Source of the DNA: Chloroflexota bacterium
GTDB lineage: Bacteria; Chloroflexota; Limnocylindria; Limnocylindrales; CSP1-4
Direction of reading: 5' to 3'
Assembly (NCBI GenBank): GCA_003141455.1
Contig: PLMA01000067.1
Span: forward strand, 85,850 to 149,849
DNA length: 64,000 nucleotides
Part shown: piece after piece, positions 32,314-47,980 of the stretch
Numbering within the stretch: position 1 is the first letter of the stretch
How the letters are laid out: the number at the start of each line of letters is the position of its first letter
Translations under genes and position numbers: made by a program
Notes under the pieces: model-generated
Database searches by the model: none
Told to the model about the DNA's origin: nothing
Seen by the model: only the letters and a program-made list of their open reading frames with translations

Positions 32314-33989
32314 CCCAACGACAACTCACGCCCCTGGCGACGCTGCCGCATCTCCAGGCCCCGCAGCCGGCCCTGGATCCGACCCTGGCGGAATTCCGTC
32401 CCGAGGCGCCGGCCCTGCCGAGCTTCTTCGTCTGGACCCTCGGCTGCCAGATGAACCAGAGCGACTCCGAGGAGATGGCCGGCCAGCTCCTCGGAGTCGG
32501 GTGCGAGCGCTCCGCCTCCATCGACGACGCCGATCTCGTCGTCATCAATACCTGCGCCGTGCGCGAGCACGCCGAGGCCAAAGTGATCGGACGGCAGGGC
32601 TTGCTCGCCGACCTCAAGCGGACCAAGCCCGGGATGCGCGTCGTGCTGGCCGGCTGTGGCGTCCGACAATCCGAACGGGCAGGTCTGGCCAAACGCTTCC
32701 CCGCCGTCGACCTCTTCCTGCGACCGGACGAGGAGCCCGAACTGGCGCTCCGACTGGGACTCGTCTCGGCTCAGGCTCCCGTGGGTCTCCGCACGGCGGA
32801 CACGGCCGCGACCACCGTTCTTGGAGGCCGAACAGTCGGCGCCGCCGACCGCCTGGCCGCCAGCCGCGCGAGCGCCGTGACCGAGGGCCGAGTGGCCCGT
32901 TCCTCGACGTTCTCGGCCTGGCTGCCGATCGTCTACGGCTGCGACAAGACGTGCACCTACTGCATCGTCCCATTCGCCCGCGGGCCCGAGCGCAGCCGGC
33001 CCTTCGACGAGATCGTGGCCGAGGCTCGCCAGATCGCCGCGGCCGGCTACGTGGAGCTGACCTTGCTCGGCCAGAACGTCAACAGCTACGGCCACGACTT
33101 GCCGGCCGAAGAGCGCTTCGGCCACATCGACACCCGCCGGTCCGCCGGCCGGCGCCTGGACCTGCGAGCCCGACCGGATCTCGCGGAGCTGATGCGTGCC
33201 GTCGACGCCATCCGTGGCGAGGACGGCGAGCCTGCGATTCCGCGCCTGCGCTTCATCACGTCGCACCCCTGGGACCTCTCGGACCGGCTCATCGAGGCGA
33301 TGGACGAATGCGATTCGGTTTGCGAGCACCTTCATCTGCCGATCCAGTCCGGCGACGACGAGATGCTCCGACGGATGGGTCGCCAGTACACGGTGGCTCA
33401 CTACCTCGAGCGCCTGGAACGGCTCCGCTCGGCGATCCCCGGGCTGGCCGTCTCCACCGACGTGATCGTCGGCTTCTGCGGCGAAACCAGGGCCCAGTTC
33501 GAAGCCACGCTGCGACTCCTCGAGGAAGTCCGCTACGACACGGTCTTCGCGGCGGCCTACTCACCGCGGCCCGGGACCGCGGCCCTGCAATTGGCCGACG
33601 ACGTGCCACCGGAGGAGAAGCGACGGCGCCTCAACGAGCTCCTACGGTGCCAGGAGGCGATCGGCCTGGAGCGCAACCGCGAATGGCTCGGCCGTGACGT
33701 CGAGGTCCTCGTCGAGCAGGTCACGCCCACCCGCCGCCGCCTGGACCCGACCGACGGCGATACCGACGACGCCGACCTTCCCGCCTCACCGGTCCCCGTT
33801 CTGGCGGGCACCGCAGGGGAGGGGAGCGTCGCCCTGGCGGGCCGCACGCGCCACAACAAACTGGTCCACCTGGCCGGCCATCCGGATCTCGTCGGCCAGC
33901 GGGTGAGGGTCCACATCGAGTACGCCGGGCCGTTCGCCCTGCGCGGCCACCTCGTGGAGGCGCAGGACCAGCCCGATGTCTTCGCCTGA
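32310..33989 (+). CDS. miaB: tRNA-2-methylthio-N6-dimethylallyladenosine synthase
   Basis: TLGCQMN, NTCAVRE, radical SAM GCDKTCTYC, LLGQNVNSYG, TSHP, HLPIQSG, TRAM domain. Confidence 0.96.
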   Translation: MTQRQLTPLATLPHLQAPQPALDPTLAEFRPEAPALPSFFVWTLGCQMNQSDSEEMAGQLLGVGCERSASIDDADLVVINTCAVREHAEAKVIGRQGLLADLKRTKPGMRVVLAGCGVRQSERAGLAKRFPAVDLFLRPDEEPELALRLGLVSAQAPVGLRTADTAATTVLGGRTVGAADRLAASRASAVTEGRVARSSTFSAWLPIVYGCDKTCTYCIVPFARGPERSRPFDEIVAEARQIAAAGYVELTLLGQNVNSYGHDLPAEERFGHIDTRRSAGRRLDLRARPDLAELMRAVDAIRGEDGEPAIPRLRFITSHPWDLSDRLIEAMDECDSVCEHLHLPIQSGDDEMLRRMGRQYTVAHYLERLERLRSAIPGLAVSTDVIVGFCGETRAQFEATLRLLEEVRYDTVFAAAYSPRPGTAALQLADDVPPEEKRRRLNELLRCQEAIGLERNREWLGRDVEVLVEQVTPTRRRLDPTDGDTDDADLPASPVPVLAGTAGEGSVALAGRTRHNKLVHLAGHPDLVGQRVRVHIEYAGPFALRGHLVEAQDQPDVFA

Positions 33990-34992
33990 GGGACACGCGT
34001 CTGAGGGTGGCACGCCGGGCGCGGGCACGCCGGACGCCGCTGTGCCGCACGCGGGCACGGCCGAAGGGCTCCCGCCGCTCGTGGTCGTGGCCGGGGCTAC
34101 CGGGACCGGCAAGACCGCGTTGTCGCTCGTCCTGGCCGAAGAGCTGGCGGCCCGCGGTGTCGCCGCTGAGATCGTCTCCGCCGATTCCCGACAGGTCTAT
34201 CGCGGCATGGACATCGGCACCGCAAAGGCGACGCCTGAGGAGCGGGCGCGGGTTCCCCACCACTGCCTCGACATCGTGGACCCAGATGCGGCCTTCAGCG
34301 TCGCCGACTACTCGCATCACGCGGCGCGGGCACTGGCGGGGATCGCCGAACGCGGCGCCGTGGCGTTGCTGGTCGGCGGGTCGGGCTTCTATCTTCGGGC
34401 CGTGGCCCGCGGCCTGGCCGTGGACGAGCTGCCGTGGGACGCGGACGTGCGCGCCCGGATCGAGGCCACCCTCGCGGACGAAGGCCTGTCCGCGCTCGTA
34501 GCGGAGCTGAGCCGCGTCGCCCCAACCCGAGCCGCGGAGGTGGACTTGCGTAACCCCCGCCGCGTCGTGAGAGCCCTGGAGATCGCCCGCCTCCGAGGAG
34601 ACGCGCCACTCCCCGCGCCTCGGGGCTACGGCCGGCCGGTTCTGTGGCTCGGTCTCCAGGTAGAGCCGGCCGTCCTGCGCGCGCGCATTCGCGCTCGCGC
34701 CCGGGCCCAATTCGACGCCGGCCTCATCGAGGAGACGCGAGCGCTCGCGGCTCGTTTCGACCCGTCGCTACCCAGCTTCTCCGGCATCGGCTACGCCGAG
34801 GCTCTGGCAGTCATCGGAGGCCGCCTGGACCTCGAGACCGCGATCGCCGTGGACGCCCGCCGCAACGTCCTGTTCGCCCGGCGCCAGGCGACCTGGTTCC
34901 GCGGCGAGCCGGACGTCCAGTGGCTCGACGCCACGCACGAGCTGCCGCTCGAGGAGGCGCTACGTGCAGGCGTCGATTATCTGTCCAGGTAG
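33976..34992 (+). CDS. miaA: tRNA dimethylallyltransferase
   Basis: GATGTGKT, SADSRQVYRGMDIGTAK, VGGSGFY, NPRRVVRALE, GIGY, FARRQ.TWF. Confidence 0.96.
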   Translation: MSSPEGHASEGGTPGAGTPDAAVPHAGTAEGLPPLVVVAGATGTGKTALSLVLAEELAARGVAAEIVSADSRQVYRGMDIGTAKATPEERARVPHHCLDIVDPDAAFSVADYSHHAARALAGIAERGAVALLVGGSGFYLRAVARGLAVDELPWDADVRARIEATLADEGLSALVAELSRVAPTRAAEVDLRNPRRVVRALEIARLRGDAPLPAPRGYGRPVLWLGLQVEPAVLRARIRARARAQFDAGLIEETRALAARFDPSLPSFSGIGYAEALAVIGGRLDLETAIAVDARRNVLFARRQATWFRGEPDVQWLDATHELPLEEALRAGVDYLSR

Positions 34993-35148
34993 CGACTCGC
35001 CTCCAGGTCATCGACGCCACACCAGCCATAACCGCATCATCCTCGCCGCGCTCCATTCGGGCCCGGAGCACGGCATTCGACAGTAGGGTCGTTGCCCTGG
35101 GCCTGGCGGCCCGGATGTCTCTTGCAGGCGGCGGGCCCCCGGCCCCGG

Positions 35149-35436
35149 TCAGTCGCCGAAAAGGTCGCGGAGCGTCTGCTCGCGTTGCTCCCCGCTCTCG
35201 CGTCGGAGGCGGGCGCGATCGCCGCGAACGGGCTTGGCATCGCCGGGTTCCTCCGAAGGCGGGGCGATGCGGCCCGACCAGCCGCCGCCTTCGGCGTCGA
35301 TCAGTCTCTCCAGCTCGCCGTAGTCGAGGAAGATGCCGCGGCATGCCTGGCACTGCTCGACGAGGATGCCAGTCCGCTCGTACCCGAGCATCCGTCCACC
35401 GCACTTGGGACAGACGAGGCCAGTCTGCGTCGCCAT
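35149..35436 (-). CDS. zf-TFIIB-like zinc-ribbon protein
   Basis: CPKC..M....GI.VEQC..CRGIFLD.GELERL...L.DLF; GGGAG SD. Confidence 0.85.
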   Translation of the reverse strand: MATQTGLVCPKCGGRMLGYERTGILVEQCQACRGIFLDYGELERLIDAEGGGWSGRIAPPSEEPGDAKPVRGDRARLRRESGEQREQTLRDLFGD

Positions 35437-35466
35437 CGGGATCTCCCTTTCTTGCGCAAGACCCAA

Positions 35467-35533
35467 GTATCGGTCGATTGGGGCCTGAGGGTTGATCCAC
35501 GGCTGAGCTTCGTTCGCTCGTATGTGATCGGGG
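35467..35533 (-). repeat. 67-bp dispersed repeat, copy A
   Basis: 54/67 identical, ungapped, to 36675-36741. Confidence 0.85.
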
Positions 35534-35609
35534 CGAAGGAGTCGGCCCTCCAGACGTGGTCGGACAGGAGGGCGGACGCTGTTGTACTTGGCCGGGGCCA
35601 ACCACGCTG

Positions 35610-36026
35610 CTACTGATTCCGCCTCACGTCCTCGCCCGGTATGCCCCTCTGCCGAAGCGCGGCCGCGAAGGCAGCGAGGTCGTCGGCGCCTACGTAGAGC
35701 GCGGGGACGTGGAAGATCGACCACCTAACCGGCTTGCGGAAGTCGATTCGTACGCCTCCGTGCGCGGCCCCGGCGAACGACACGTCGCCGCCGCGGATCG
35801 ATCGCCTTACGCCGATTGCCTTGACCCAGATGAATGGACCCTCGATGCGCCAGCTCGCGACGTTCGCGAGAGGCGTGGCGAAGCGGACGCGCCCGAAGCG
35901 CGCCTGCAACTCGCCGTCAGGCCCTTCGCCCAGCTCCGCGTAGGCAAGGCCCGGCTTGACGCCCCACAGCCGAAGGAGCGGCAACGACCGCGGCCCGAGC
36001 CGGATGTCAAATCGTTCGACCGACAT
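35610..36026 (-). CDS. Hypothetical protein
   Basis: MSVERFDIR..LRLWGV...ARFG..RF.TPLANV...KAIGVR.S..D..F; TATGCT lies 6 nt before the ATG. Confidence 0.75.
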   Translation of the reverse strand: MSVERFDIRLGPRSLPLLRLWGVKPGLAYAELGEGPDGELQARFGRVRFATPLANVASWRIEGPFIWVKAIGVRRSIRGGDVSFAGAAHGGVRIDFRKPVRWSIFHVPALYVGADDLAAFAAALRQRGIPGEDVRRNQ

Positions 36027-36249
36027 GCGGCCAGCATATGGCGGGCTCACGCCTCCGGGGCGGACTCGCCCTCCGGGCCCGCGGGATGCACCGCCAGACT
36101 CACGACAGAACCGGAATAGGCCGACCGGCCGAGCAGGTCCGGCCAGCGGTTCCGCTATCCTGCCTCGGTAGCCTAGAAGGCCCTGTAGTCGCGTGGCGAG
36201 CGAAGCATCACCCACTCGACGACGGCACCCCAAGCCGTGAGGAGCACGC

Positions 36250-36606
36250 ATGGATCCGAATGCGAACCCCAACCCACGAGCCGACGAGCCCATCGCCTGG
36301 CGCGCCGTCCCGGAAGACGTGGAGGTGCGCTCGGACGGCCAGCCGGTCGGGACGCTGTACGACCTCCTCGGTTCCCACGAGGAAGACATCTTCCACGGCA
36401 TCGTCGTGAAGCTCCGGTCGGGGTCTCGCAGAGTCTTTGTGCCGGCGGACGACGTCGTCCTCCTGACGGCCAGCCACGTGGATGTGTCCCTGAGCGCGGC
36501 TGAGATCGGCGCGTTGCCCGAGCACACGGAAGAACGAGGGTTCGGTCTGGGGATGGTCGGGCTCTTCCGCAAGCATGTCGGCTGGACCAGGGAGAAGGAC
36601 CGCTAA
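36250..36606 (+). CDS. PRC-barrel/DUF2171-like hypothetical protein
   Basis: IAWRA......V..DG..VG.L..LLG....DIFHG.VV......FVPADDV; GAGGAG SD. Confidence 0.7.
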   Translation: MDPNANPNPRADEPIAWRAVPEDVEVRSDGQPVGTLYDLLGSHEEDIFHGIVVKLRSGSRRVFVPADDVVLLTASHVDVSLSAAEIGALPEHTEERGFGLGMVGLFRKHVGWTREKDR

Positions 36607-36674
36607 GCTGCCGGCCTCACCCAGGCGCTCACGACGCAGCGGGCCGCCCTCCGGACGCAGCGGTCGCGCAGGGT

Positions 36675-36741
36675 TCGTCGGCCGATTGGGGCGAGAGGGT
36701 TGGGCGACGGCTGAGCTTCATTTGCCCGTATGTGTTCGGGG
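36675..36741 (-). repeat. 67-bp dispersed repeat, copy B
   Basis: Ungapped 54/67 match to 35467-35533. Confidence 0.85.
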
Positions 36742-36916
36742 TGGTCGAGAGCTACCTGGCGAGCCTTGGCCAGGGGTAGCTGCCCCACCCTGTTTGCTGA
36801 TCTTGGGAGTCCTTCGGTCATCCGATTGGACTACCATTCAGGGTAGGGGTCGGCGTCGCCACGTTGCGGCGGCCCGGCGACACTGGCTCGATGTCAACCG
36901 CGAAGACCACAACCGT

Positions 36917-37378
36917 CTCCTTTCGATCACCTTCGTGGCCCCGAGCAATGGACCATCGGCTCACGCCATCTTCGATGTGACCGGCTATTTCACCCCCGAT
37001 ATGAGCGGCGCCACCTACGTCCCGCTGACCCCGACCAGAGTCCTCGATACCCGCAACGGCACCGGCGGTCTCGGTGGTCCCTTCACCAACCATGCCGCCC
37101 GAACCTTCACCGTCGGCGGGGTTCCTGCAGGTGCCATCGCCGTCACCGGCAACCTGACCGTGACCGGGCAGACGAGCAGTGGCTACTTCTCCATCGGCCC
37201 GGTCGCTACGGACAACCCGGGCAGCTCGACTCTGAACTTCCCGGTCGGTGACGACCGGGCCAACGCGGTGACCGTCGCCCTCGGTGGCGGTGGCACCCTC
37301 TCGATCACCTTCGTGGCTCCGAGCAGCGGCCCCACGGCCCAGGGGATCTTCGACGTGACCGGCTACTTCGCGCCATAG
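36917..37378 (+). pseudogene. C-terminal remnant of a repeat-domain surface protein
   Basis: LSITFVAPS.GP.A..IFDVTGYF occurs twice around one PTRVLDTR...NLTV...TLNF unit; no credible start or signal peptide. Confidence 0.7.
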
Positions 37379-37466
37379 GGCAGGCTGCGAAGACGGAGAG
37401 ATCCGCGGGCCGCGCGAGCTGGGGCCCCCAGGGCCGCGCCCGACAGGTCGCGTATCCTTTGCCCGT

Positions 37467-38792
37467 ATGACCAAAGACATGATCGACCTCACCGCGCCCG
37501 TGGAGCGCGCCTTCCTCGTCGCCGTGGACACGGGCGACGACCCCGGCTGGACGGCCGAGGAGTCGATCGTGGAGCTGGCCAGTCTGGCCGACACCGCCGG
37601 CGCGGAAGTCGTCGGCGCGGAGTGGCAGAACCGCCGCCACGTGGACCCCAACACCTATGTCGGCAAGGGCAAGGTGGACGAGCTGGTCGCCGCCAAATCG
37701 GAGACCGGCTACACCCTTCTCGTCGCCGATGACGAGCTGTCGCCCGCCCAGCAGCGAACCCTGGAAGAGGCGGTCAAGACCAAGGTCATCGATCGGTCGC
37801 GTCTCATCCTGGACATCTTCGCCCTGCACGCCCAGACGCATGAGGGGCGCCTCCAGGTGGAGCTGGCCCAGCTCGAGTACCAGCTGCCGCGCCTCACTCG
37901 CCTCTGGACGCACCTCTCGCGCACCGGCGGCGGCATCGGCACCCGCGGTCCCGGCGAGTCTCAGCTCGAGACGGACCGGCGCATCGTTCGCGACCGAATC
38001 AAGAAGCTCAAGGAGCGTGTGGATCAGATCGGGGAACAGCGGCGCACCGCCGCTCGCGGCCGCGACCGTCGCCTGATCCCCACCGTGGCTATCGTCGGTT
38101 ACACGAACGCCGGCAAGTCGACGCTCCTCAACGCCCTCGTCGGCCAGGAGGTCGTGAAGGCGGAGGACAAGCTCTTCGCCACCCTCGATCCCACCTCGCG
38201 CCAGGTGAAGCTCGGCGACGGCCAGACGGCGATAGTCACCGACACGGTCGGTTTCATCCACAAGCTCCCGCACCAGCTGGTCGACGCGTTCCGCGCCACC
38301 CTCGAGGAGGTGACGCGCGCCGACGTCCTGCTCGAGATCGTGGACGCATCGGACCGTCATTTCGCCGAGCACCGGGCCACCGTCCAGACGGTTCTCGCGG
38401 ATCTTGGAGCCGGGGACAAGCCGCGCCTCGTGACCTTCAACAAGGCCGATCTCATCGAGCCCGCCGCGAAAGACGGCGAGACGCCAGGTCCCGCCATCGC
38501 GGGCACGGTCCTGATCTCGGCCGTGACCGGCTATGGGCTGGAGACCCTGAAGGCCGAGCTGTCCGCCCTGCTGGCGTCGCTGTGGGTGGATGTCGACGTC
38601 GCGGTTCCCTACAGCGCCGGCGAGCTCCTCGCACGGGTCCGGGAGCGGGGGACCGTAGAGCTCGACTACCGACCGTCCGACGTCCGGGTCCGCGGGCGAA
38701 TCAGCCCGCCTCTCGCGGGAGAGCTGGAGACGGTCGCGGCCAGGTGGCGCGAAGCCGGGCGCACCGACAACGGGGCGGCTCCGGACGCCTGA
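37467..38792 (+). CDS. hflX: GTPase HflX
   Basis: ELASLA.TAG, YVGKGK, LDIFA.HA...EG.LQVELAQL.Y, GIGTRGPGE, VGYTNAGKSTL, DTVGFI; TATCCT lies 8 nt upstream. Confidence 0.98.
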   Translation: MTKDMIDLTAPVERAFLVAVDTGDDPGWTAEESIVELASLADTAGAEVVGAEWQNRRHVDPNTYVGKGKVDELVAAKSETGYTLLVADDELSPAQQRTLEEAVKTKVIDRSRLILDIFALHAQTHEGRLQVELAQLEYQLPRLTRLWTHLSRTGGGIGTRGPGESQLETDRRIVRDRIKKLKERVDQIGEQRRTAARGRDRRLIPTVAIVGYTNAGKSTLLNALVGQEVVKAEDKLFATLDPTSRQVKLGDGQTAIVTDTVGFIHKLPHQLVDAFRATLEEVTRADVLLEIVDASDRHFAEHRATVQTVLADLGAGDKPRLVTFNKADLIEPAAKDGETPGPAIAGTVLISAVTGYGLETLKAELSALLASLWVDVDVAVPYSAGELLARVRERGTVELDYRPSDVRVRGRISPPLAGELETVAARWREAGRTDNGAAPDA

Positions 38793-38848
38793 CGCTGCCG
38801 GCCGCTCACGTCCAGCAGGCGCACCCCGGACGTGAGCGACTCGACGCC

Positions 38849-38992
38849 TTACAGCTGGTACAACTCGGCCGAAGGAGACCCGCCGCCGGCTATCAGGATC
38901 CGGCCGTCGCGCAGGAGCGTCGCGGTCTGGTCCATGCGAGCAGCGGCCATGGCGTGGGCCGGACTGAAGGTACCGGCGCTCGGGTCGTACAC
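38849..38992 (-). pseudogene. Last blade of a Kelch/galactose-oxidase-repeat protein
   Basis: VYDPSAGTFSPAHAMAAARMDQTATLLRDGRILIAGGGSPSAELYQL*, matching the final repeat of 62042-63613; no in-frame start. Confidence 0.8.
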
Positions 38993-39214
38993 CCCGCCTG
39001 CACCCCCATCAACAGGGCCGGGACGGGTGGCCCTTTGGCATTGTAGCCGTGGCCGAACCGTTCGATCCTCTACTCCCTGGGCCTTGGAGCAGTCCTTCGC
39101 GAGGCGGGCGGCGCCTCTCCACTAGTTGCTCCCGGCAGGGGAGGGCTGATCCAGAACGGACGTTCTCATGCAATCGCCGGAGATCGACCCTCGCGACCAC
39201 CCGTGTTGGCAGGC

Positions 39215-39298
39215 CGTGGATAAGTAGCGAAACAACCGTTTCCCCAACCCAAACTGGTGGATAAGCCACTATCGCGGCAGGGGCCAGAAGCCTAGATT
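39215..39298 (+). promoter_or_regulatory. Two DnaA-box-like 9-mers plus TAGATT -10 (module 1)
   Basis: CGTGGATAA 39215-39223 and GGTGGATAA 39256-39264 (one mismatch each from TGTGGATAA); TAGATT 39293-39298. Confidence 0.6.
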
Positions 39299-39305
39299 CT
39301 GTCTT

Positions 39306-39643
39306 GCCCGGAGGGGCCAGCGAGATCATCACCGACTCAGCGGTTTCGACGGAAACGGTGTAGCGATCTACCGGAAGGTCCAGGGACCCGCAAGGGTTTC
39401 TGAACCGGAAAGCAGATCGTGAACCGCGGAAGTCGGAATGTAGAGGGTCGGTGGCAGTCCCGGCAGTGGCCGGAGCGCGGTCCGCCGTTTGAGCGAGGAG
39501 TTTTCGGACCCCTTGTTCGCGGAGGTCGAAGCGGCCGGTACACGCGAGACCGCAGTCTGATCGAACAGGTTCCTTCGGGCGTTTTCGTGTGTCCGGCGAG
39601 GGCGTCTGCCGCCGTGGCGCCCGGGGCACCGTCAGCCCGGGCA
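39306..39643 (+). ncRNA. Candidate ~340-nt structured ncRNA, family unknown
   Basis: Nested stems CCGACT/AGTCGG, GCGGTT/AACCGC, CGATCT/AGATCG, CAGGGACCC-GCAA-GGGTTTCTG, ACC-GGAA-GGT, TGTTCG/CGAACA, CC-TTCG-GG; 5'/3' ends pair; no credible ORF. Confidence 0.6.
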
Positions 39644-39719
39644 TGCGAGACCCGCCGAGCAGGGTAGGGGACCCAGGAGGTATCCTCGGCCGCGACCCGC
39701 CCGTGCAGCAAGGAAGGCG

Positions 39720-40478
39720 ATGGCGCTCCCCGGCCCCACCATCTGGTTCATCGTCCCGACATACAACGAGCGCGAGAACGTCGGCCCCATCACCGACGCC
39801 ATCCTGGAGACCGTTCCAGAGGCTCACATCCTGATCGTGGACGACGGATCGCCCGACGGCACAGGCGATCTGGCCGACGAGATGGCCGGCCGTAACCCGG
39901 CGATCGCCGTGCTCCACCGCCAGGCCAAGCAGGGCCTCGGGCGCGCCTACGTGGCTGCGTTCAGAGAGCTGATCGGCCGCAACGCGGACATCGTGGTCCA
40001 GATCGACGCCGACTTCAGCCACCCCGTCCGGTATCTGCCCTCGCTCCTGGAGCCCCTGCGCACGGGCAAGGCGGACCTGGTTCTGGGTTCGCGCTACGTG
40101 AAGGGCGGCCACATTCCGCGCTGGAACATCCTGCGCCGCCTGGTCAGTCGGGGCGGGAGTGTCTTCGCCGGCGTCGTCCTCTTGCTCCCGTTCCGAGATC
40201 TCACGGGCGGCTACAAGGCCTGGTCCGCGAGCGCGCTCAAGGAGATCGATCTCGACCGGCTTCACGCAGGCGGCTACGCCTTCCAGATCGAGACCACTTT
40301 CCGCGCCCGCCAGGGCGGCGCCAGCATCGTCGAAGTCCCGATCACGTTCGAGGAACGCAGGGCGGGCCAGTCGAAGATGAGCATGAACATCTTCATGGAG
40401 GCGTTCCTGCTCGTCCTGGCCCTGCGAGTCACGAACCTCCGCCGCCGCAAGCGCACCCGACCGGGGTCCGCCGCCTGA
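39720..40478 (+). CDS. Polyprenol monophosphomannose synthase-like GT2 glycosyltransferase
   Basis: IVPTYNERENV, VDDGSPDGTG, KQGLG.AY, IDADFSH, GSRYV.GG, DLTGGYK, GYAFQIE, EVPI.F.ERRAG.SK. Confidence 0.93.
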   Translation: MALPGPTIWFIVPTYNERENVGPITDAILETVPEAHILIVDDGSPDGTGDLADEMAGRNPAIAVLHRQAKQGLGRAYVAAFRELIGRNADIVVQIDADFSHPVRYLPSLLEPLRTGKADLVLGSRYVKGGHIPRWNILRRLVSRGGSVFAGVVLLLPFRDLTGGYKAWSASALKEIDLDRLHAGGYAFQIETTFRARQGGASIVEVPITFEERRAGQSKMSMNIFMEAFLLVLALRVTNLRRRKRTRPGSAA

Positions 40479-40555
40479 CGTCGCAGGCCCCCGAGCACGC
40501 CCGTTCGACTCGCCTCGTGGTCCGCCGCGTGCCGGATGGCCACCTGTGCACGAGC

Positions 40556-40639
40556 CGTGGATACCACCCGTCACGAGGGCGACCAGTTTCCAAACAGGTG
40601 GATAAGGCGGTTGGCATCGGACGCCCGGCGGACTAGATT
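40556..40639 (+). promoter_or_regulatory. Two DnaA-box-like 9-mers plus TAGATT -10 (module 2)
   Basis: CGTGGATAC 40556-40564, GGTGGATAA 40597-40605, TAGATT 40634-40639; spacing identical to module 1. Confidence 0.6.
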
Positions 40640-40646
40640 CGTTCTT

Positions 40647-40778
40647 GCCCGGAGGGGCCACGGACACCCGAACGACTCGATCGATTCTAGGATCGGCCGA
40701 ACGATGCGGGGTCGCGGTTCCTTCGGGCGCTCCATGTCCGTTCCAGGGCGGCCCGCCGTAGCCCGCACGCCGGCGGGC
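40647..40778 (+). ncRNA. Candidate ~130-nt shorter paralogue of the 39306-39643 RNA
   Basis: Same 5' GCCCGGAGGGGCCA and GGTTCCTTCGGGCG; stems CGGACA/TGTCCG, CGACTC/GGGTCG, CGATC/GATCG, GCCCG/CGGGC. Confidence 0.5.
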
Positions 40779-40844
40779 CGCTTGCTGCGCGCCGGCCTCG
40801 TCCACTTCTTACATCACTGTTGCGCCCGGTGATATCATCCAAGC

Positions 40845-41090
40845 ATGATACGAACGCAGATCTCCCTGACCGAGAAGCAGATGAACCGCCTCCGCCGCGC
40901 GGCGAGCGCTAGGGGAGTGTCCATCGCGTCGGTGATACGCGAGGCCGTGGATCGTTCAGTGCCTGACGAAGGGGCTGACCGGCTGGCGCGGCAGCAGCGA
41001 GCCTTCAAGCTTGCCGGCACCTTCTCGTCCGGTCACAGCGACACCTCCGAGCGCCATGACGAGATTCTCGCGGAAAAGCCGCGCTGGTGA
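40845..41090 (+). CDS. vapB: CopG/RHH antitoxin (VapB-type)
   Basis: MIRTQISL......L...A...GVS.A.VIREAVD, G.F.SG..D.SERHD; overlaps the PIN gene by 4 nt; ATCAC/GTGAT inverted repeat at 40813-40833. Confidence 0.88.
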   Translation: MIRTQISLTEKQMNRLRRAASARGVSIASVIREAVDRSVPDEGADRLARQQRAFKLAGTFSSGHSDTSERHDEILAEKPRW

Positions 41091-41479
41091 GCGTATTCGT
41101 CGACACGAGCGCCCTCTACGCGCTGCTCGACGCTGCCGACGCCGGCCACGAGCGCGCGTTGCGCGGGAGTGAACTCATCCTGGGCGAGGAACTACTCACG
41201 CACAGCTACGTGATGGTCGAGGCGGTATCGCTTGTCCGGCGCCGACTCGGAGCCGAAGCGGCGGCCCGCCTCATCGACGACATGCTGCCCGCAATCAAGA
41301 TAGTCGACGTGGACGAGGCTCTCAGAGGACGCGCGGTCGCAGCGTTTCGCGCGGCCGTCTCCTCGAGCATCTCTCTCGTTGACCGGACGAGCTTCGAATT
41401 CATGCGCACGCTCGGCATCTCGCGCGCCTACGCCCTTGACCCGGACTTCGAGGCAGAGGGCTTCGAGCTAGTCAGCTGA
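41087..41479 (+). CDS. vapC: PIN-domain toxin
   Basis: VFVDTSALYA, E, SLVDRTSF..M, ALDPDF. Confidence 0.92.
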   Translation: MSVFVDTSALYALLDAADAGHERALRGSELILGEELLTHSYVMVEAVSLVRRRLGAEAAARLIDDMLPAIKIVDVDEALRGRAVAAFRAAVSSSISLVDRTSFEFMRTLGISRAYALDPDFEAEGFELVS

Positions 41480-41557
41480 GAGAACGAAGCCCAAGGGCCC
41501 TTCCACGCAAGCCTAGCGCCCTTGCCACACGGCGCCTAGTGTAGTAGGCTTGGCGAC

Positions 41558-41728
41558 GTGAAGCGCCACGAGCTCCTGTGGGGGATCGCAAGAGCGGCCC
41601 GGGCGCAGGGCGTTGTGTGGCAACTCCACCGACAAGGCGCCAGCCACGAGATCTGGCGGTGTGACGGCCTGAAGGTGATCTCTAGGAAGCTCGAAGGGGT
41701 GCTTGGGAAGGACTGGTGGCGACGGTGA
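41558..41728 (+). CDS. hicA: HicA-like toxin, 56 aa, apparently internally deleted (absent from the ORF track)
   Basis: MKRHELL..IARAA...GV.W.L.RQGASHEIWRCDG..V|ISRKLEGVLGKDWW; GTGA overlap with hicB; TAGGCT lies 7 nt upstream. Confidence 0.75.
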   Translation: MKRHELLWGIARAARAQGVVWQLHRQGASHEIWRCDGLKVISRKLEGVLGKDWWRR

Positions 41729-42138
41729 AGCCGGTCTACACAGCCACGGCAGTTCGGAGCGGTCGATGGTGGGCCATCGAAGTACCGGACGTGTCCGGCG
41801 TGTACTCACAGGCGCGACGGCTGGATCAAGTGGGGGCGATGGCCCGAGAGGCGATCGCACTCATACAAGATGTCCCCGAGGACTCCTTTGATGTCATCGT
41901 TGAGCCGCAGATCGGGGCCCTTGGCGACCTCGGCCGCGCGATTGAGGACGCGCTACGAGCCCGCCAGGCGGCCGAGCAAGCTCAAGAGGTATCGTCTACA
42001 GCCATGCGCCACGCGGTCAGCGAGATCCGCAGCTCGGGCTACACGGCGCGCGATGCCGGCATGCTCCTCGGCGTCAGCAACCAGCGCATCAGCCAGATCG
42101 AGCGAAGCGGGGGCAGGAAGCGGACTCCAACTCCATAG
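41725..42138 (+). CDS. hicB: HicB-like antitoxin with C-terminal HTH
   Basis: YTATAVRSGRWWAIEVP.V.G.YSQARRLDQV..MAREAI; RDAG.LLGVS.QRISQ. Confidence 0.88.
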   Translation: MKPVYTATAVRSGRWWAIEVPDVSGVYSQARRLDQVGAMAREAIALIQDVPEDSFDVIVEPQIGALGDLGRAIEDALRARQAAEQAQEVSSTAMRHAVSEIRSSGYTARDAGMLLGVSNQRISQIERSGGRKRTPTP

Positions 42139-42222
42139 TCCCGACTGAGCGTCAGGCAACAGTCGAGGTCTCTAGGCCTCCCATTGTGCTGCCGATAAGA
42201 TAGGTTATGTCCGTTACTTGAA

Positions 42223-43053
42223 CTACAGGACCTCTTTGCCAAAGACGCGGTCGATGGGCAGATATCGGACGGGATCGGTCAGGCGGGGACCTGCTTGCCT
42301 TAGCCACGAGTCGAACCACACGTACCACGCCAACAAGGCGTTCTCGCCGAGGTCGTACGTCTCAGCTGGTTTGGGCATAAGAGCCTCGAGGCTTGGCCCG
42401 TGAGTGGCGTGGAGACGCGCTCTTTGCGGGCTGCCTGGTTGACCGAGCTTGGCGAGCTCGAGGTAGGTGCCTGCTCGCGCCACCACTCGATCAGGCACAA
42501 CAAGAAGATCAGGCTGTTCCGATCTGGGACATTCCTTGAGGGCTTGCGTGTAGTTCGCCTGGAAAGTCGCCGAAGCGGGACAATCGAATCCCCAAATCAC
42601 GAACAGGGATTCCGCGAGGGGCTGCAACTGGGCTGGCGCGAGGCAAAATCGCCGTTGTAGTCTTTTGAACGCACGTCCCTTCTTGATGGCATCCGCCATC
42701 TCCTGAGGCGACAGCATCGTCTTGACCTCCACAAGGCCGTACACAGCCTCAACGGGCCACAGCTCGTTTCGACTGCCGCCGTACAGCGGTGCGTTGTTGA
42801 GGACGTCCACGACGAGTAGATCGGCTTGACTAGAGAACTCCCCTTCAGAAGAGATCACCATTCCTGATCGAACGCCAAACTTCCGCGGCAGGTGCTGCTC
42901 AAGGAACCGGCCCACGATGTCCTGGCGGTTTTCACCGGCCGACAGATGGTGAGAAGCAAAGTCGCGACGGATCGCAGCAGACTGGTTGCGCATCTCTGCG
43001 GCGACCCCGGCCAGGTACTCCGGCAGGATTGCTGACTTAGGGGCACTGTTCAT
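42223..43053 (-). CDS. DUF6602-like PD-(D/E)XK nuclease-fold protein
   Basis: GE.RQ.IV.RFL..HLP..FGV.SG.VI...G..S.QAD..V.D, PVEAVYGLVEVK; visibly more AT-rich than the core genes. Confidence 0.75.
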   Translation of the reverse strand: MNSAPKSAILPEYLAGVAAEMRNQSAAIRRDFASHHLSAGENRQDIVGRFLEQHLPRKFGVRSGMVISSEGEFSSQADLLVVDVLNNAPLYGGSRNELWPVEAVYGLVEVKTMLSPQEMADAIKKGRAFKRLQRRFCLAPAQLQPLAESLFVIWGFDCPASATFQANYTQALKECPRSEQPDLLVVPDRVVARAGTYLELAKLGQPGSPQRARLHATHGPSLEALMPKPAETYDLGENALLAWYVWFDSWLRQAGPRLTDPVRYLPIDRVFGKEVL

Positions 43054-43604
43054 ACCCCGTACACCTTCAGGATGTCGTCGCCGTAGTGGTTGATCACTTT
43101 GATGGCGATGCAGCCGGAATCCGGGACTCGGAACGGGCGCGAAACCGTTGAGTTCAGCGAGGACCAGGCGGCCTCGTCGATGTCGGCACGGAGGGCGCGG
43201 CGGAGCTTGTCGTATGGGTCGTCATCGCCGAGGAAATATGCGTGGCGGACGAAGAACTGGCGGTTGTCGTAGGCGGTATCTATGAACCAGCAGGCGATGT
43301 CGGCGGTGGATTGGGGGACTATCTCGCCGTTGGTGGGCTTGTAGGTGTCGAGGCCGCGGATTTCGACCTGGAGCTGGCCCTCCCCTACCCTGCGGATGTC
43401 GACGTCGGGCTGGCCGAAGATGGAGAACAGGTTGCCGATGCGCGTCTTCTTGAGCAGGTCTTCGCCCATGCTGAGGTCCGGGTTCATTCGAACGGCCAGG
43501 ACGGTCAGGTTGCCGAAGCGCATCGCCTTGCCGGTCTCCTCGTCCGCACGGGCGTCGAACGCGAAGCCGCAGACATGACGGCCGATACCCTGTGCATCGC
43601 TCAA
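43050..43604 (-). pseudogene. C-terminal domain only of a type III-like site-specific DNA methyltransferase (Mod)
   Basis: CGFAFDA, RMNPDL.M.EDLLKKT..GNLF..FGQPD, DIACWFIDT.YD...FFVRHAYF, IAIKVINHYGDD; catalytic half absent; TTG 43604 comes from the repeated leader. Confidence 0.8.
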
Positions 43605-43619
43605 GGCCTTCCCCCGCTT

Positions 43620-43645
43620 GCGTGACGGTGCTCCCCTACTGTAGC
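43620..43645 (-). repeat. 26-bp promoter/leader repeat, copy 1
   Basis: GCGTGACGGTGCTCCCCTACTGTAGC (+ strand). Confidence 0.9.
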
Positions 43646-43690
43646 CCCTCGGCGCGGCCCCGGAGAGACCCGACCTGCGGTCGGCCGCGC

Positions 43691-44635
43691 TTACGGCCGG
43701 AACCTGGCCTCGCCGTGCCAGCTGAGCATGTCGCGCGAAGGCTGCTCGAATGCGGCTTGCGGCAATCGGATTGGGCAACCATCGAGTTCGTAGTACTCCC
43801 GTCCGTTCTCGAACTCCTCGTGGATCCGCCGACTGACACGAACCCGCAGGTCATCGGGCGTCACCGTCATGTAGCCGAGATCGAAGAGGGTATGCAGGTC
43901 GGATCGGAGCAGGAGCCCGTTCGAGACCTCGTGGCGGCCGACGAGGTTGTAGGGCTTGATGTGCGCGGCCTCCAGCACCGGCAGCGTCCGCTCTCCCGTC
44001 ACGACGCATCGACGGTCATAGGCATCCGTGACCATGACGCGAAATGCGCCCTGGCCAAGCCGGGGGCGAACGAGGAGTGGGCTACCGTACGATGCCGCCG
44101 GGCCGTCACTGGTCGCATGCGCGAGATCCGCGATTGGCTGCGCGGAACTGACTACCGCCAGCGCCTCCAAGACGCGCAGCCAGAGGCGCTGGCCCTCGCC
44201 GATCTCGGTGTCGTATGTCTTGCCGCGCGTGAGATTCGAGGACCAGTCGGCGGGCGGCTCGATCCACATCTCCCTTGGCAGGAAGAATGGCTCGACGAGG
44301 ATCGAGGCGCCAATCTGCGTGCTGAGCGGATCCACAGCCCTTTCGCTATGCCTGCGAACCAGTTGGAGGAATGCGTCGTAGGAGGCAGCACCGTTGGACT
44401 TACCAAAGGCGTCCCAAGCGAGCTGCGGTGTCAAGGTCGAGTAGTGCGCAAACCGCGCGCCGCCGACGATGTATCCGCCGTTGCGGACGTGGAGCTTGAA
44501 GAGCCACGGTGCGCCTTCGGGCAGAGTGACCGGGCGCACATTGTTGGGCTGCCAGAAGTTCACCTCGTCGATAGGTGCGACCGAAGTGAGGTAGCTGACC
44601 CAGGAAGAGTCTGTGTTCGCGACCCAGTACCGCAC
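43691..44635 (-). CDS. HNH endonuclease with N-terminal putative DNA-reader domain (type IV restriction-like)
   Basis: YWVANTD..W..YL...DEVNFWQP; RLGQGAFR..V..AY...C.VTG...LEAAHI.P...H.V.NGLLLRSDLH.LFD. Confidence 0.88.
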   Translation of the reverse strand: MRYWVANTDSSWVSYLTSVAPIDEVNFWQPNNVRPVTLPEGAPWLFKLHVRNGGYIVGGARFAHYSTLTPQLAWDAFGKSNGAASYDAFLQLVRRHSERAVDPLSTQIGASILVEPFFLPREMWIEPPADWSSNLTRGKTYDTEIGEGQRLWLRVLEALAVVSSAQPIADLAHATSDGPAASYGSPLLVRPRLGQGAFRVMVTDAYDRRCVVTGERTLPVLEAAHIKPYNLVGRHEVSNGLLLRSDLHTLFDLGYMTVTPDDLRVRVSRRIHEEFENGREYYELDGCPIRLPQAAFEQPSRDMLSWHGEARFRP

Positions 44636-44762
44636 TCGTGGAGTCTACGAGGGCGCGGACTCTCGCGGAATACCCACTTGTGCCTGGCCCGCGAAGGCGC
44701 TCCATCGATGTGCCGCCCACTACTCACCCAGCTTCGGCGTGCTCGGAGCGATGAAGCCGCCT

Positions 44763-44787
44763 GGGGTCCACGTAGATCATTCTGGAC
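44763..44787 (-). pseudogene. Possible eroded Mod catalytic motif (VQ-MIYVDP)
   Basis: GTCCAG-A-ATGATCTACGTGGACCCC resembles KVQMIYIDPPY with a 1-nt insertion; very short. Confidence 0.3.
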
Positions 44788-44872
44788 CTGGATGTGGATC
44801 GGGATCGCCGGCACGACGAGCGCCCCCGACGGAGGTCGGCGCGGCCGGCTTGCCAATTCTCCTGGCCAACGC

Positions 44873-45283
44873 TTACTTCCCGCTTACCTTCGCTGCCGTC
44901 GCATCCATGATCGTTTGGGCGCCTGCCACTGCTTCCTCGGCTTCCGTCCACGTTGGCTCGTCCGGATCACCCAGCTCGGTTACGTATCGCACGCCTCGAG
45001 CCATCGCGCTGAGCGACGCCAGCGTCTTCATCGACACGCCGAGGTTCAGATCCGCAGGCAGCATCGACTTGAGGGCAACCAGGTTGTGATCGCGCGGAGG
45101 TTCGATCCCCTCGGCCACTGGCACCGCCTTCATCGACTTCTCGGCAGCCTGCTGAGCGTGGAAACCAGCTGCCCAAGGCTCCATGTCGGGCCCCCTCTTC
45201 AGGATGACCCTGGCCAGCGCGAGGTCCGTCTTGGCCTTGGCAAGCCAGAGTTCCGCGACCGCAAGCTGCTCAGCTGCGCGCAT
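44873..45283 (-). CDS. HEPN domain protein
   Basis: WLAKA..DL..A....FHAQQAAEKSMKA...PPRDHNL..L; coupled to the MNT gene. Confidence 0.88.
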   Translation of the reverse strand: MRAAEQLAVAELWLAKAKTDLALARVILKRGPDMEPWAAGFHAQQAAEKSMKAVPVAEGIEPPRDHNLVALKSMLPADLNLGVSMKTLASLSAMARGVRYVTELGDPDEPTWTEAEEAVAGAQTIMDATAAKVSGK

Positions 45284-45815
45284 AGATGGTGACCCCCTCC
45301 CGAAGGGCCGGGCGCAGCGTGGATCCAGCGAGATTGGCGCCTCGCGCAAGCTGCTCCGGCGTGGCAACGATCACGTCAGTGGACAGCGGGATACCCTGGA
45401 GCGCCTGGTAGATGGCTACCTCGATGTCTCGTCCTCGCTGCACGCCGGACACAACGATCAGCAGGTCCGCGTCGCTGTCGGGACGAGCCTCCCCCCGGGC
45501 CTGGGAACCGAAGAGGATGATCTTCTCCGGCTTGAAGCCACGGACGATGCGGCGCTTGATCAAGGGCAGCCACTCGATTGCTTGTTGCGACAGACGCAGC
45601 TTCTGCTTCTTCGCTCCCCTCTTTGGCCCGGAGCTCGCCCGGTAGTCTTCCACCTCAGCGCGTCTCCAGATTCGGCCGTTGGCGACGATGGCCGCCGGCG
45701 CGGGAAAATCAGGCCTGGAGGCCCAGTCGCGGATGAAGTTGGGCACGTTGACGCCGTAGATCTCGGCAGCCTCCTTGGTGCCCAGGAGCTCCATTGGAGT
45801 CTCGCGCTCGCTCAT
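45270..45815 (-). CDS. AlpA/excisionase-like HTH fused to a minimal nucleotidyltransferase (MNT)
   Basis: N-terminal LLGTKEAAE..GV......RPDFPAP......GRIW...EV; C-terminal IILFGSQARG.ARPDSDADLL. Confidence 0.85.
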   Translation of the reverse strand: MSERETPMELLGTKEAAEIYGVNVPNFIRDWASRPDFPAPAAIVANGRIWRRAEVEDYRASSGPKRGAKKQKLRLSQQAIEWLPLIKRRIVRGFKPEKIILFGSQARGEARPDSDADLLIVVSGVQRGRDIEVAIYQALQGIPLSTDVIVATPEQLARGANLAGSTLRPALREGVTIYARS

Positions 45816-45821
45816 GTCGTT

Positions 45822-45840
45822 ATGATAGCATCACTATCAT
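45822..45840. promoter_or_regulatory. Inverted-repeat operator over the HTH-MNT promoter
   Basis: ATGATAG-CATCA-CTATCAT; the minus-strand TATCAT lies 6 nt before ATG 45815. Confidence 0.65.
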
Positions 45841-45950
45841 TAGATACACGCCCCCCTCTGCAGCGAGCTCACGTGCGCGCGGACGAGGTTGGCCGCGTCC
45901 CAGGGATCGGTGACTTCCAAGAAGGACCACCGGCCCAGGCCGCCGCGCTC
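45840..45950 (-). pseudogene. Extreme C-terminal remnant of a type III-like restriction subunit (BPTD_3080-like)
   Basis: ERGGLGRWSFLEVTDPWDAANLVRA resembles the GGFGRWAFLEI.DPWD terminus recalled for this family. Confidence 0.6.
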
Positions 45951-46029
45951 TGATAGGAGCAGGTCCCAGCGACCCGGATACCTCTCCAACCAGGCCCGTC
46001 TTGGTTCAGTCGATGCTCGCGCTTGTGCG

Positions 46030-46476
46030 TCAGTGCGGCGAGGGAATCGCCGGCGAATGAGTGGGAATCCCTCGCATTATCACGTCGGTGAGGTACTGGC
46101 TGACGAGTCCCGAGATGGGCACTAGGAAGGTCAGCATGAGCGTGGTGAAGACGATGAAGCAAGCGATCTTGAACGACGCGCTTCTCGCGTAGCCGCGCGG
46201 AAGCCAGGGCGAAAGCAGCACCGGGAGAGCCATAGGGAAGAGATCGGCTGCCCCGATCGCCGCATAGATACCGGGTCCCGAAGTCAGCCCGCCGACGATG
46301 AACCCAAGCCCGATCACAAGCCCGACAGCGCCGCACGCGAGGACCAACCGGTCGAGATGAATACCTCGGGTCCGAGCGGGCTTGCTCTGGACTTCGCGCA
46401 CGGCCGCCAGCCCGAGATCGGATGCGCCGCCGACCATCTCGCGCGTGCCGCGGCAATCCGGGAACTGGGGAATGCA
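46030..46476 (-). CDS. Membrane protein or remnant with a partial topoisomerase-type C4 zinc-finger motif
   Basis: C..QFPDCRGTR lies upstream of the ORF-track start, followed by 3 TM segments; start unclear. Confidence 0.45.
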   Translation of the reverse strand, partial: CIPQFPDCRGTREMVGGASDLGLAAVREVQSKPARTRGIHLDRLVLACGAVGLVIGLGFIVGGLTSGPGIYAAIGAADLFPMALPVLLSPWLPRGYARSASFKIACFIVFTTLMLTFLVPISGLVSQYLTDVIMRGIPTHSPAIPSPH

Positions 46477-46492
46477 GGTGATGCTGAGTAGC

Positions 46493-46807
46493 TCACCGGC
46501 GTTCCTCGGTCAACCAAGTGAGGATCACCAGGGGGATGATGATGACGATCCACGGGATGAAGTAGACCTGGCTCGTGAAATAGGCGGCGAAGTCGCTCAA
46601 GCCCTTCGGCGCCGTCAGCGCGGCCCACAGGCAGAGAACCGGCAACGTCAGCGCCCATATCCCAAGCGCGAGCCGAAGGAACTCGTGCAGGAAGCTGCCG
46701 CTTGGTCGGATGACCGCGTCGAAGGACGCGCCGCAATGGCGACAGGCCTTGTCGCTCGCGGCCACCAGGCCGCCGCAGTTGGAACAGACCCGATCTGCCA
46801 CCCTCAC
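46493..46807 (-). CDS. Zinc-ribbon membrane protein
   Basis: CSNCG......ACRHCG followed by two TM helices. Confidence 0.7.
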   Translation of the reverse strand: MRVADRVCSNCGGLVAASDKACRHCGASFDAVIRPSGSFLHEFLRLALGIWALTLPVLCLWAALTAPKGLSDFAAYFTSQVYFIPWIVIIIPLVILTWLTEERR

Positions 46808-46832
46808 CCCGCTCCTTGTTCGAGACGCGGGT

Positions 46833-47223
46833 TCAATGTACTCCTCCCCTCGCCTGCGGCGTCTCGTCGTGCGTGTCGGCGTCGAAGGCGGCGATCGAGG
46901 CGCGCAGGTTGCCGGCGACCTGCCTGGGGTCCGCCAGGATAGCCCGCAGGTTCAGTCGCGAGGTGTAGTAGGCCTCGATGCCGGTCACGGTCTTACAAGA
47001 CGGGGCCGACGGTCTGCACGGTCAGGGTCTTGCCGCGGGCGAGGACCTGGGCTTTGGTGGGCTCGAGGACGCAGTCGAGCCGGCGGAGCAGGACGAGCGG
47101 CAGGATGACCCGGCCGTACTCGGACTGCTTGTGATCGCCGCGCAGCAGATCGGCGATGGCCCAGATGAGGCCGGCGTGGTTGGTGGGCGCGGCGTGATTC
47201 GTGGCGGCGCTGCCCTCGGCCAA
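46833..47223 (-). pseudogene. hsdM: Type I R-M methyltransferase HsdM, N-terminal fragment with frameshift
   Basis: [36 protein letters not shown], a +1 shift at ~46995, then TGIEAYYTS.LNL..ILADP..VA.NL; truncated after ~120 codons. Confidence 0.85.
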
Positions 47224-47240
47224 CTGATACCCCCGGGAAC

Positions 47241-47266
47241 GCGTGACGGTGCTCCCCTACTCTAGC
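47241..47266 (-). repeat. 26-bp promoter/leader repeat, copy 2
   Basis: GCGTGACGGTGCTCCCCTACTCTAGC. Confidence 0.9.
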
Positions 47267-47310
47267 CAGTTGCGGCACGGTTCGAACTGCCCAGCCGGCG
47301 AGCGACAGTC

Positions 47311-47349: not shown

Positions 47350-47361
47350 CAGGAGACAGGC

Positions 47362-47960: not shown

Positions 47961-47980
47961 TGCCCCGAGAAAGGGAGCGA

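Follow-up and report, generated by a model that had tools for sequence, protein, structure and literature searches.

Introduction

Several large structured noncoding RNAs (ncRNAs) of bacteria, such as the raiA motif RNA, OLE, ROOL and HEARO, came out of comparative genomics and are orphans (Weinberg and Breaker collections, e.g. PMC2864571). Few large bacterial RNAs combine numerous conserved, covarying helices with an unknown function, and earlier ones led to new biochemistry. Here we analyzed 64,000 nt of contig PLMA01000067.1 (the window) from an uncultured member of the Limnocylindria (Chloroflexota), and describe RNA1, a predicted RNA gene on the + strand in the 930-nt gap between hflX and a GT2 glycosyltransferase gene (GT2), together with a shorter sibling, RNA2, 3′ of GT2. 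The Limnocylindria are abundant in soil, peat and freshwater, yet uncultured.

Like the orphan RNAs above, RNA1 combines a putative stand-alone promoter, a multi-helix fold, many conserved unpaired nucleotides, a narrow range and unknown function, and just as the raiA RNA lies near raiA/hpf, RNA1 adjoins the gene of a ribosome-associated factor, hflX. In contrast to RNA1, those RNAs have neither the clamp and U-tract described below nor short siblings sharing a clamp, and no sequence or structure match connects them with it.

Four other groups of RNAs are close in one feature or another. The bacterial Y RNAs (Yrn/YrlA) that go with Ro/Rsr also have a conserved stem formed by the two ends around a variable interior, several paralogues and a U-rich 3′ end. 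Their stem sequence, however, is unrelated, the RNA1 family has no tRNA-like module, Rfam scans of RNA1 and RNA2 gave no match to YrlA or Y RNA models, and no Ro/TROVE domain was found among the open reading frames (ORFs) scanned within ~5 kb of either RNA (33976-48328). The 6S and Ms1 RNAs are stable RNAs of 180-300 nt with paired ends and possible size-variant paralogues, but RNA1 is a five-way junction instead of a rod with a bubble, and no model match was found. Like RNA1, the lysine riboswitch has a five-way junction that P1 closes, internal loops rich in purines, and a same-strand position 5′ of a gene; it differs in that its model does not match, that P1 of RNA1 is long and invariant, that no conserved expression platform is present, that one genome has RNA1 without the downstream gene, and that the siblings are tied to no gene. 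The sibling small RNAs (sRNAs) Qrr1-5, RsmX/Y/Z and PrrF1/2 come, as here, as two or three paralogues per genome, each with a common upstream box that keeps its spacing to the promoter. In the RNA1 family, unlike in these, only the terminal helix is common, with no seed or loop motif, and one member has a structured interior of 250 nt.

No match to Rfam 15 at gathering thresholds was found in the whole window, in agreement with the failure of the original prediction, a reading of the bare sequence, to place RNA1 in a known class. Permissive Rfam scans of RNA1, RNA2 and a distant sibling returned only sub-threshold noise (sucA, 20.9 bits against a threshold of 40; CC1840, 21.1 against 50; flavi_FSE, 12.6 against 43). 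ARAGORN found no tRNA, tmRNA or tRNA-like element in the window, and a literature search returned nothing on RNAs of Limnocylindria.

We consider it probable that RNA1 is a stand-alone gene for a stable structured ncRNA of ~280-290 nt, belonging to an undescribed family of end-clamped RNAs in Limnocylindria (Chloroflexota).

Results

Conservation and gene order of RNA1

Judged by sequence comparison, the hflX-GT2 gap holds a real, conserved and folded RNA gene of ~280 nt that matches no described RNA family. The original prediction had read the gap as a novel, structured, + strand ncRNA with its own TAnnnT promoter, separate from GT2. This reading is supported by the results below: the structured element is real, and its homologues show strong covariation. 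The anatomy, in particular the 3′ boundary and most individual stems, had to be corrected. The features to which the comparison refers are as follows.

37467-38792, hflX
39305-39581 (~277 nt), + strand, RNA1 core, ten helices closed by clamp P1, defined by conservation and covariation
39720-40478, + strand, GT2 glycosyltransferase gene of the polyprenyl-phosphate hexose transferase type (Pfam GT2 match)

Loci fetched by means of the GT2 protein (80 in total) were compared by blastn. Region 39251-39720 was conserved at 71-95% identity directly 5′ of the GT2 orthologue in 43 species-level genomes. RNA1 was present in all 43 genome loci that have the orthologous GT2 gene, and hflX lay upstream of it in every one. 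The core (39302-39600) was 74-98% identical across these loci and constant in length, while the stretch from its end to a conserved motif of GT2 varied from 96 to 207 nt and could not be aligned. In the more distant GT2 loci (L043-L080) no RNA was found, and hflX was not adjacent there either. The closest relatives of the GT2 protein, up to 93% identical, were encoded in metagenome-assembled genomes named Chloroflexi/Chloroflexota, Chloroflexia and Candidatus Limnocylindria/Limnocylindrales.

When metagenomes were scanned with the first 23 nt of RNA1, which are nearly invariant, 91 stretches were returned, of which 5 were chance matches in coding DNA and ~86 were genuine. The order hflX-RNA1-GT2 was kept in all of the ~86 contigs, as far as each extends. 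In contig L207, RNA1 is intact and the GT2 gene is gone; a second RNA gene follows after ~330 nt. No match was found in phage and plasmid collections. A search of viral contigs with the 14-nt clamp strand gave 120 matches, which were all random, with the partner strand in none.

A coding reading of the gap was rejected: its ORFs have no Pfam match and the core alignment contains indels of 1-2 nt. In view of the high G+C content, a 598-aa ORF (39009-40805, - strand) that runs antisense to GT2 was considered spurious.

Secondary structure of RNA1

The stretch 39306-39643 folded at -168.4 kcal/mol on the + strand (z = -4.0, with none of 100 shuffles as good), against z = -2.05 for the - strand. 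This result agreed with the + strand element that had been proposed, and its start was as claimed, at G39306, 7 nt past TAGATT. The proposed closure of the element, in which the 5′ end pairs with TGGCGCCC..CCGGGCA (39617-39643), did not hold: this segment lies in a variable, unconserved spacer and is absent from L002 and L003, two loci with 97% identical cores. The single-sequence fold already paired the 5′ end GCCCGGAGGGGCC with GGTTCCTTCGGGC (39568-39580) and not with 39617-39643.

RNAalifold, run on 44 sequences, predicted 71 pairs, and compensatory changes were seen at 21 of these. A refined model of ten helices (78 pairs) was then tested on 93 sequences (92 distinct), with controls in which the partners were slid by 1-3 columns. 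In this model 93.0% of cells were paired, compared with 30-46% in the slid controls, and changes on both sides were seen at 35 pairs in 344 cells, compared with 9-19 pairs in 47-94 cells. None of 500 shuffles reached the model by any measure. The helices are listed below, all on the + strand.

39305-39318 with 39568-39581, P1, the closing clamp, found by the single-sequence fold, RNAalifold and the comparative model
39305-39318, P1 5′ strand UGCCCGGAGGGGCC, Shine-Dalgarno-like (GGAGG)
39568-39581, P1 3′ strand GGUUCCUUCGGGCG, anti-Shine-Dalgarno-like (CCUYC)
39324-39327 with 39559-39562, P2 (5′ strand GAUC), 99.7% paired
39330-39453, long 5′ arm, P3-P7
39330-39338 with 39445-39453, P3, 5 pairs changed on both sides
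39343-39349 with 39433-39439, P4, 5 pairs changed on both sides
39356-39359 with 39423-39426, P5
39364-39369 with 39414-39419, P6, 5 pairs changed on both sides
39378-39388 with 39395-39405, P7, GCAA loop at 39390-39393, 9 pairs changed on both sides
39454-39478 (39454-39455/39477-39478 and 39460-39463/39470-39473), P8 hairpin with a near-invariant CAGUGG loop
39493-39502 with 39507-39516, P9 hairpin, UUCG loop at 39503-39506, 6 of 10 pairs changed on both sides
39519-39533 with 39543-39553, P10, interrupted hairpin with a 9-nt loop, 93-98% paired

The P3-P7 arm, P8, P9 and P10 meet in a five-way junction that P2 and P1 close off. Pair 7 of P1 changed from G:C to A:U in 8 distinct sequences, and one pair of P9 was G:C in 47 sequences and A:U in 28. 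Because two G.U pairs of P1 are invariant in 92 of 92 sequences, and would be A.C mismatches if read on the other strand, RNA1 is on the + strand. P8 is 98.6-100% paired yet almost invariant, so covariation says little about it either way. P10 changed mostly on one side and is the least supported helix. Invariant unpaired nucleotides include AGCGA past P1 (39319-39323), the CAGUGG loop, and the purine-rich internal loops of the long arm, CGGAAA/CGGAAG and GUAGAG. AGCGA stands directly 5′ of P2 and GAA directly 3′ of its 3′ strand, a candidate tandem G.A motif. Alternative pairings of the unpaired segment 39484-39492, and a loop-loop contact between P8 and P10, showed no consistent covariation.

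The helices named in the original prediction were examined stem by stem on 43 distinct sequences. Two were borne out, the GCAA-capped hairpin (39378-39405) and CGATCT/AGATCG, which are P7 and P6 of our model. GCGGTT/AACCGC was ambiguous, as it clashes with the covarying P4 and is broken in L012 and L019. CCGACT/AGTCGG was canonical in only 47-74% of sequences, TGTTCG/CGAACA in 9-95% by position with 4 of 6 positions below 60%, and ACC-GGAA-GGT was not conserved. The supposed C(UUCG)G hairpin (39572-39579) falls within GGTTCCTTCGGGCG (39568-39581), which is the P1 3′ strand and the segment that in fact pairs with the 5′ end.

The fold bears on whether RNA1 could bind and regulate RNA polymerase in the manner of 6S or Ms1 RNA. 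Its ~280 nt are near the size of Ms1, a terminal helix links its 5′ and 3′ ends, its predicted stand-alone promoter would be strong, and 6S-1 and 6S-2 are a precedent for two paralogues of different size. However, 6S RNA (RF00013) is a ~180-nt rod with a large central bubble, in place of which RNA1 has a five-way junction supported by covariation; no 6S match was found in Rfam even at E <= 10, and the short siblings are 80-nt rods, below the size of 6S. We regard this identity as very improbable.

3′ end of RNA1 and its relation to GT2

The features between the core and GT2 are as follows, all on the + strand.

39582-39596 (15 nt), U-rich tail UUUUCGUGUGUCCGG, predicted 3′ end region
39597-39653, spacer of variable length, unconserved, outside the RNA family
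39662-39716, conserved block 5′ of GT2 (conserved columns)
39662-39671, GGGTAGGGGA, in the GT2 upstream block
39681-39686, TATCCT, in the GT2 upstream block
39711-39716, ribosome-binding site AGGAAG (GT2 ATG at 39720)

T makes up 55% of the first 12 nt past the RNA1 clamp, and 46% in the short siblings, compared with 16% overall, and for this reason clamp and U-tract are predicted to end the transcript. The 3′ end of RNA1 would thus lie in the U-rich tract directly past P1, and the conserved RNA would comprise ~277 nt and the 15-nt tail instead of the ~340 nt first proposed. An unconserved spacer of 0-100 nt intervenes between RNA1 and the GT2 elements, the conserved TATCCT block and the ribosome-binding site. 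TATCCT, which the original prediction had named as GT2's own element, is kept in 44 of 44 aligned loci, and the upstream block (39662-39716) is presumably a promoter. In the spacer we also noticed a tandem repeat of ~27 nt (GCAAGCTGGCGCCCCGCGGCA...), with five copies in L241 (2032-2317 region) and two in L252.

This arrangement has to be weighed against a cis-acting leader of GT2, a riboswitch-like sensor or attenuator in which P1 and the U-tract terminate transcription, and read-through locks the P1 3′ strand in a tail hairpin so that GT2 is expressed. RNA1 always shares its strand with the same GT2 orthologue, which follows 140-250 nt downstream, both in genome and in metagenome loci, RNA1 occurs only in the clade where this GT2 adjoins hflX, and its five-way junction with conserved junction and loop nucleotides is aptamer-like. 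The distal tail has an alternative partner in the P1 3′ strand; the resulting hairpin, seen in RNA1 alone, is far more stable than in shuffled tails (-10.7 against -4.7 kcal/mol), with canonical fractions of 0.91-1.0 and only one-sided changes. Its 3′ strand, however, lies past the U-tract, and therefore it would be unable to prevent termination. P1 is not marginal and ligand-gated as in a riboswitch; it is 13-14 bp long, GC-rich and invariant in sequence, and a GC-rich helix of 14 bp appears too stable for a ligand to gate. The variable, unconserved spacer offers no conserved expression platform competing with P1, and GT2 has its own conserved TATCCT block. In L207, RNA1 persists without GT2, and the siblings stand with the same clamp and tail 5′ of unrelated genes. 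A cis-acting leader is, on balance, unlikely.

Promoter and upstream boxes

The following elements precede RNA1 on the + strand.

39216-39224, distal box GTGGATAAG, at about -90 from G+1
39257-39265, proximal box GTGGATAAG, at about -49, beside a weak -35 region
39293-39298, -10 hexamer TAGATT, at the same spacing in nearly all loci

A TAnnnT-type hexamer (TAGATT, TACATT, TATTGT or CATTAT) stands 7 nt before G+1 in nearly all loci, and transcription is predicted to start at 39305/39306. The upstream GTGGATAA boxes had been missed in the original prediction. GTGGAYA boxes at -49 ± 1 and -90 ± 1 were found in 98 of 100 distinct upstream regions of RNA1; before RNA2 the pattern is less complete. 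The window contains three exact matches to the 9-mer GTGGATAAG (39216, 39257 and 40598), where 0.10 are expected, and all stand at the promoters of RNA1 and RNA2.

The DnaA box has the 9-mer consensus TT(A/T)TNCACA. The GTGGATAAG box on the other strand reads TTATCCAC, which we take to be the core of a DnaA box, as a lead only. The 8-mer core TTATCCAC is found at -49 and -90, with a variable ninth base in the clade of the window. In L292, 300 bp (6868-7160) contain five GTGGAYAA boxes (reverse TT(A/G)TCCAC), four of which are perfect 9-mers.

Such clusters would also be expected if the conserved feature were mainly one of DNA, a DnaA-box cluster acting as an origin-like or DnaA-titrating locus with incidental hairpins. 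The presence of TTATCCAC boxes beside both RNA genes and nowhere else in the window, the cluster in L292, and a shallow minimum of the cumulative GC skew near 40 kb fit this idea. But the boxes keep fixed positions relative to the promoter, the extensive compensatory changes and the invariant G.U pairs belong to an RNA, no dnaA, dnaN or AT-rich unwinding element is nearby, and the skew signal is within noise. This explanation appears extremely improbable.

RNA2 and the short siblings

A second copy (40647-40790), also missed in the original prediction, lies 3′ of GT2, with the following parts on the + strand.

40557-40639, RNA2 promoter region
40557-40564, box GTGGATAC
40598-40606, box GTGGATAAG, 4 nt before the -35 element
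40611-40616, -35 element TTGGCA
40634-40639, -10 hexamer TAGATT, 17 nt past the -35 element
40647-~40790, RNA2, shorter sibling with an invariant clamp, the same as that of RNA1
40647-40728, RNA2 core, 13-bp P1 (40647-40659 with 40716-40728) around a 56-nt rod-like interior
40729-40790, tail and linker, then a GC-rich terminator hairpin (40748-40758 with 40771-40781)

The ends of RNA2 match those of RNA1, with the start TCTTGCCCGGAGGGGCC and the end GGTTCCTTCGGGC. RNA2 is conserved in the same loci as RNA1, and the genes downstream of it differ by locus and are sometimes on the opposite strand. In 63 sequences its rod fold was 97.5% paired, and two-sided changes occurred at 10 pairs, compared with 2-6 in slid controls. 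A covariance model of the short siblings (R1) scored 103.7 bits at RNA2, and with filters off it found no third copy in the whole window.

In other Limnocylindria lineages, whose HflX is ~80-83% identical, RNA1 and the GT2 gene are both missing beside hflX. These lineages carry one or two short siblings 0.2-1.6 kb past hflX, with the same boxes, the same clamp and a U-rich tail; the clamp of the L292 sibling shows a compensatory change from C:G to A:U. The clamp and the GTGGAYAA promoter layout at -49 and -90 are thus common to RNA1 and the short siblings. Since short siblings occur in RNA1-less lineages too, the short form is the more widespread, and RNA1 is a member confined to one clade, with an interior expanded to ~250 nt.

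In three RNA1-less loci (L292 6330-6845, L295 6425-6895 and L296 6341-6913), a hypothetical protein of 156-190 aa is encoded between hflX and the short sibling. These proteins are 37-45% identical to each other, have no Pfam match on record and are absent from the window. Separately, the ends of many metagenome contigs (L202, L222, L223, L226, L247, L249, L266 and L269) fall in a repeat of ~30 nt common to the promoters and clamps of RNA1 and RNA2, and L269 has an inverted duplication at it; the repeat seems to break short-read assemblies.

Sibling sRNAs that share the binding site of a common regulator are a known pattern, and RNA1 and its siblings could be base-pairing sRNAs in which the CCUCC/CCUUC strand of an opened clamp, or the CCGUCAC repeats, pair with ribosome-binding sites or other mRNA; in a variant, GGAGG would titrate the anti-Shine-Dalgarno of 16S rRNA. 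The likeness of the P1 strands to Shine-Dalgarno and anti-Shine-Dalgarno sequences would suit this, as would the 1-3 CCGUCAC repeats that RNA2 orthologues have in the unpaired linker 5′ of their terminator. The candidate seed, however, is locked in a very stable helix, the covarying ~250-nt interior of RNA1 far exceeds the needs of a seed carrier, CCGUCAC is not in RNA1, and no conserved target was identified. We find base pairing with mRNA or rRNA rather unlikely as the function of the family.

Possible mode of action of RNA1

RNA1 is conserved in fixed synteny, its + strand structure shows abundant compensatory changes, and an invariant clamp of 13-14 bp joins its ends. We favor a stand-alone RNA because RNA1 has its own TAnnnT hexamer and boxes, a T-rich tail and an unconserved spacer behind it, because L207 keeps it without GT2, which agrees with the separation from GT2 first proposed, and because its siblings stand with unrelated genes.

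Under this reading, transcription from the TAGATT promoter would need, or be tuned by, a factor on the two DnaA-like boxes. P1 could double as terminator stem and as a clamp hiding both ends from exonucleases, and the invariant clamp might be a recognition or processing site common to all siblings. The five-way junction, purine-rich loops and GNRA/UUCG caps would give a compact fold, and such an RNA most likely acts in trans and is probably protein-binding, as a scaffold or by sequestering its partner.

Several points weigh against this interpretation. Both ends of the transcript, its abundance and its independence of the GT2 mRNA are predictions from sequence. A generic scan for sigma-70 promoters and terminators called nothing at RNA1; the TAGATT promoter was passed over because its -35 is weak. 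At the 3′ end a GC-rich P1 stem is followed by a U-tract, but the 'loop' spans 250 nt, outside the 3-8 nt that the consensus scan covers; a closing helix around 250 nt would be an unusual intrinsic terminator. The alternative hairpin of the tail with the P1 3′ strand is not explained by a plain terminator model. RNA1 and the GT2 orthologue are on the same strand and co-occur almost perfectly, and this tight association keeps a riboswitch alive as a rival. In L002 and L003 almost nothing lies between the tail and the GT2 upstream block, so that co-transcription or control by read-through may take place there. Finally, the sequence does not prove protein binding over base-pairing or catalysis.

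A more far-reaching version of the protein-binding RNA would make RNA1 the RNA part of a ribonucleoprotein not known so far, or a new functional class tied to the ribosome or HflX. The clamp would mimic a duplex of Shine-Dalgarno and anti-Shine-Dalgarno for a dedicated factor, and DnaA, bound to the boxes at -49 and -90, would switch the sibling family and so couple translation or ribosome recycling to the state of replication. We give this scenario little credence.

The anatomy is unusually clear, in that a putative promoter, regulator boxes, clamp and terminator can be read in the sequence, siblings share the clamp only, and one genome keeps the RNA after loss of the adjacent GT2 gene. This provides experimental handles: the clamp could serve to capture a protein and the boxes a regulator, and RNA1 could be compared with the short siblings. 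Two new families could enter Rfam. The narrow range, and the lack of a pointer to any particular function, make the interest real but moderate.

Gene neighborhood

The window DNA is high in G+C (~68%), and the gene order around RNA1 is recA, recX, rny, ymdB, a PHP-domain gene, miaB, miaA, 2.4 kb of unannotated DNA, hflX, the gap, GT2, vapBC and a low-GC island. ORFs scanned between 33976 and 48328 matched the domains IPPT, HflX, GT2, RHH, PIN, DUF6602, HNH_2, NTP_transf_2, Zn_ribbon_3, HsdM_N and HTH, or none. In 39200-39600, G+C falls to 0.59-0.63 and the GC skew is positive.

The sequence 3′ of RNA2 varies between genomes, recalling integration hot spots beside stable RNA genes. In the window, a variable low-GC island (40845-48328, G+C 0.635-0.65) begins directly past the RNA2 terminator. 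It contains vapB/vapC, a DUF6602 gene, an HNH endonuclease, a nucleotidyltransferase, a truncated N-terminal fragment of HsdM and an HTH regulator, and no integrase was seen in it.

On the other side of RNA1, ~350 nt directly 3′ of the hflX stop (38793-39150) have no counterpart in other loci, where the conserved upstream region of RNA1 begins within ~100 nt of hflX. The 2.4 kb from miaA to hflX (34992-37467) contain an ORF on each strand, 35610-36572 (-) and 36575-37378 (+), neither of them matched by Pfam or NCBIfam. In L293 and L297, miaA directly abuts hflX.

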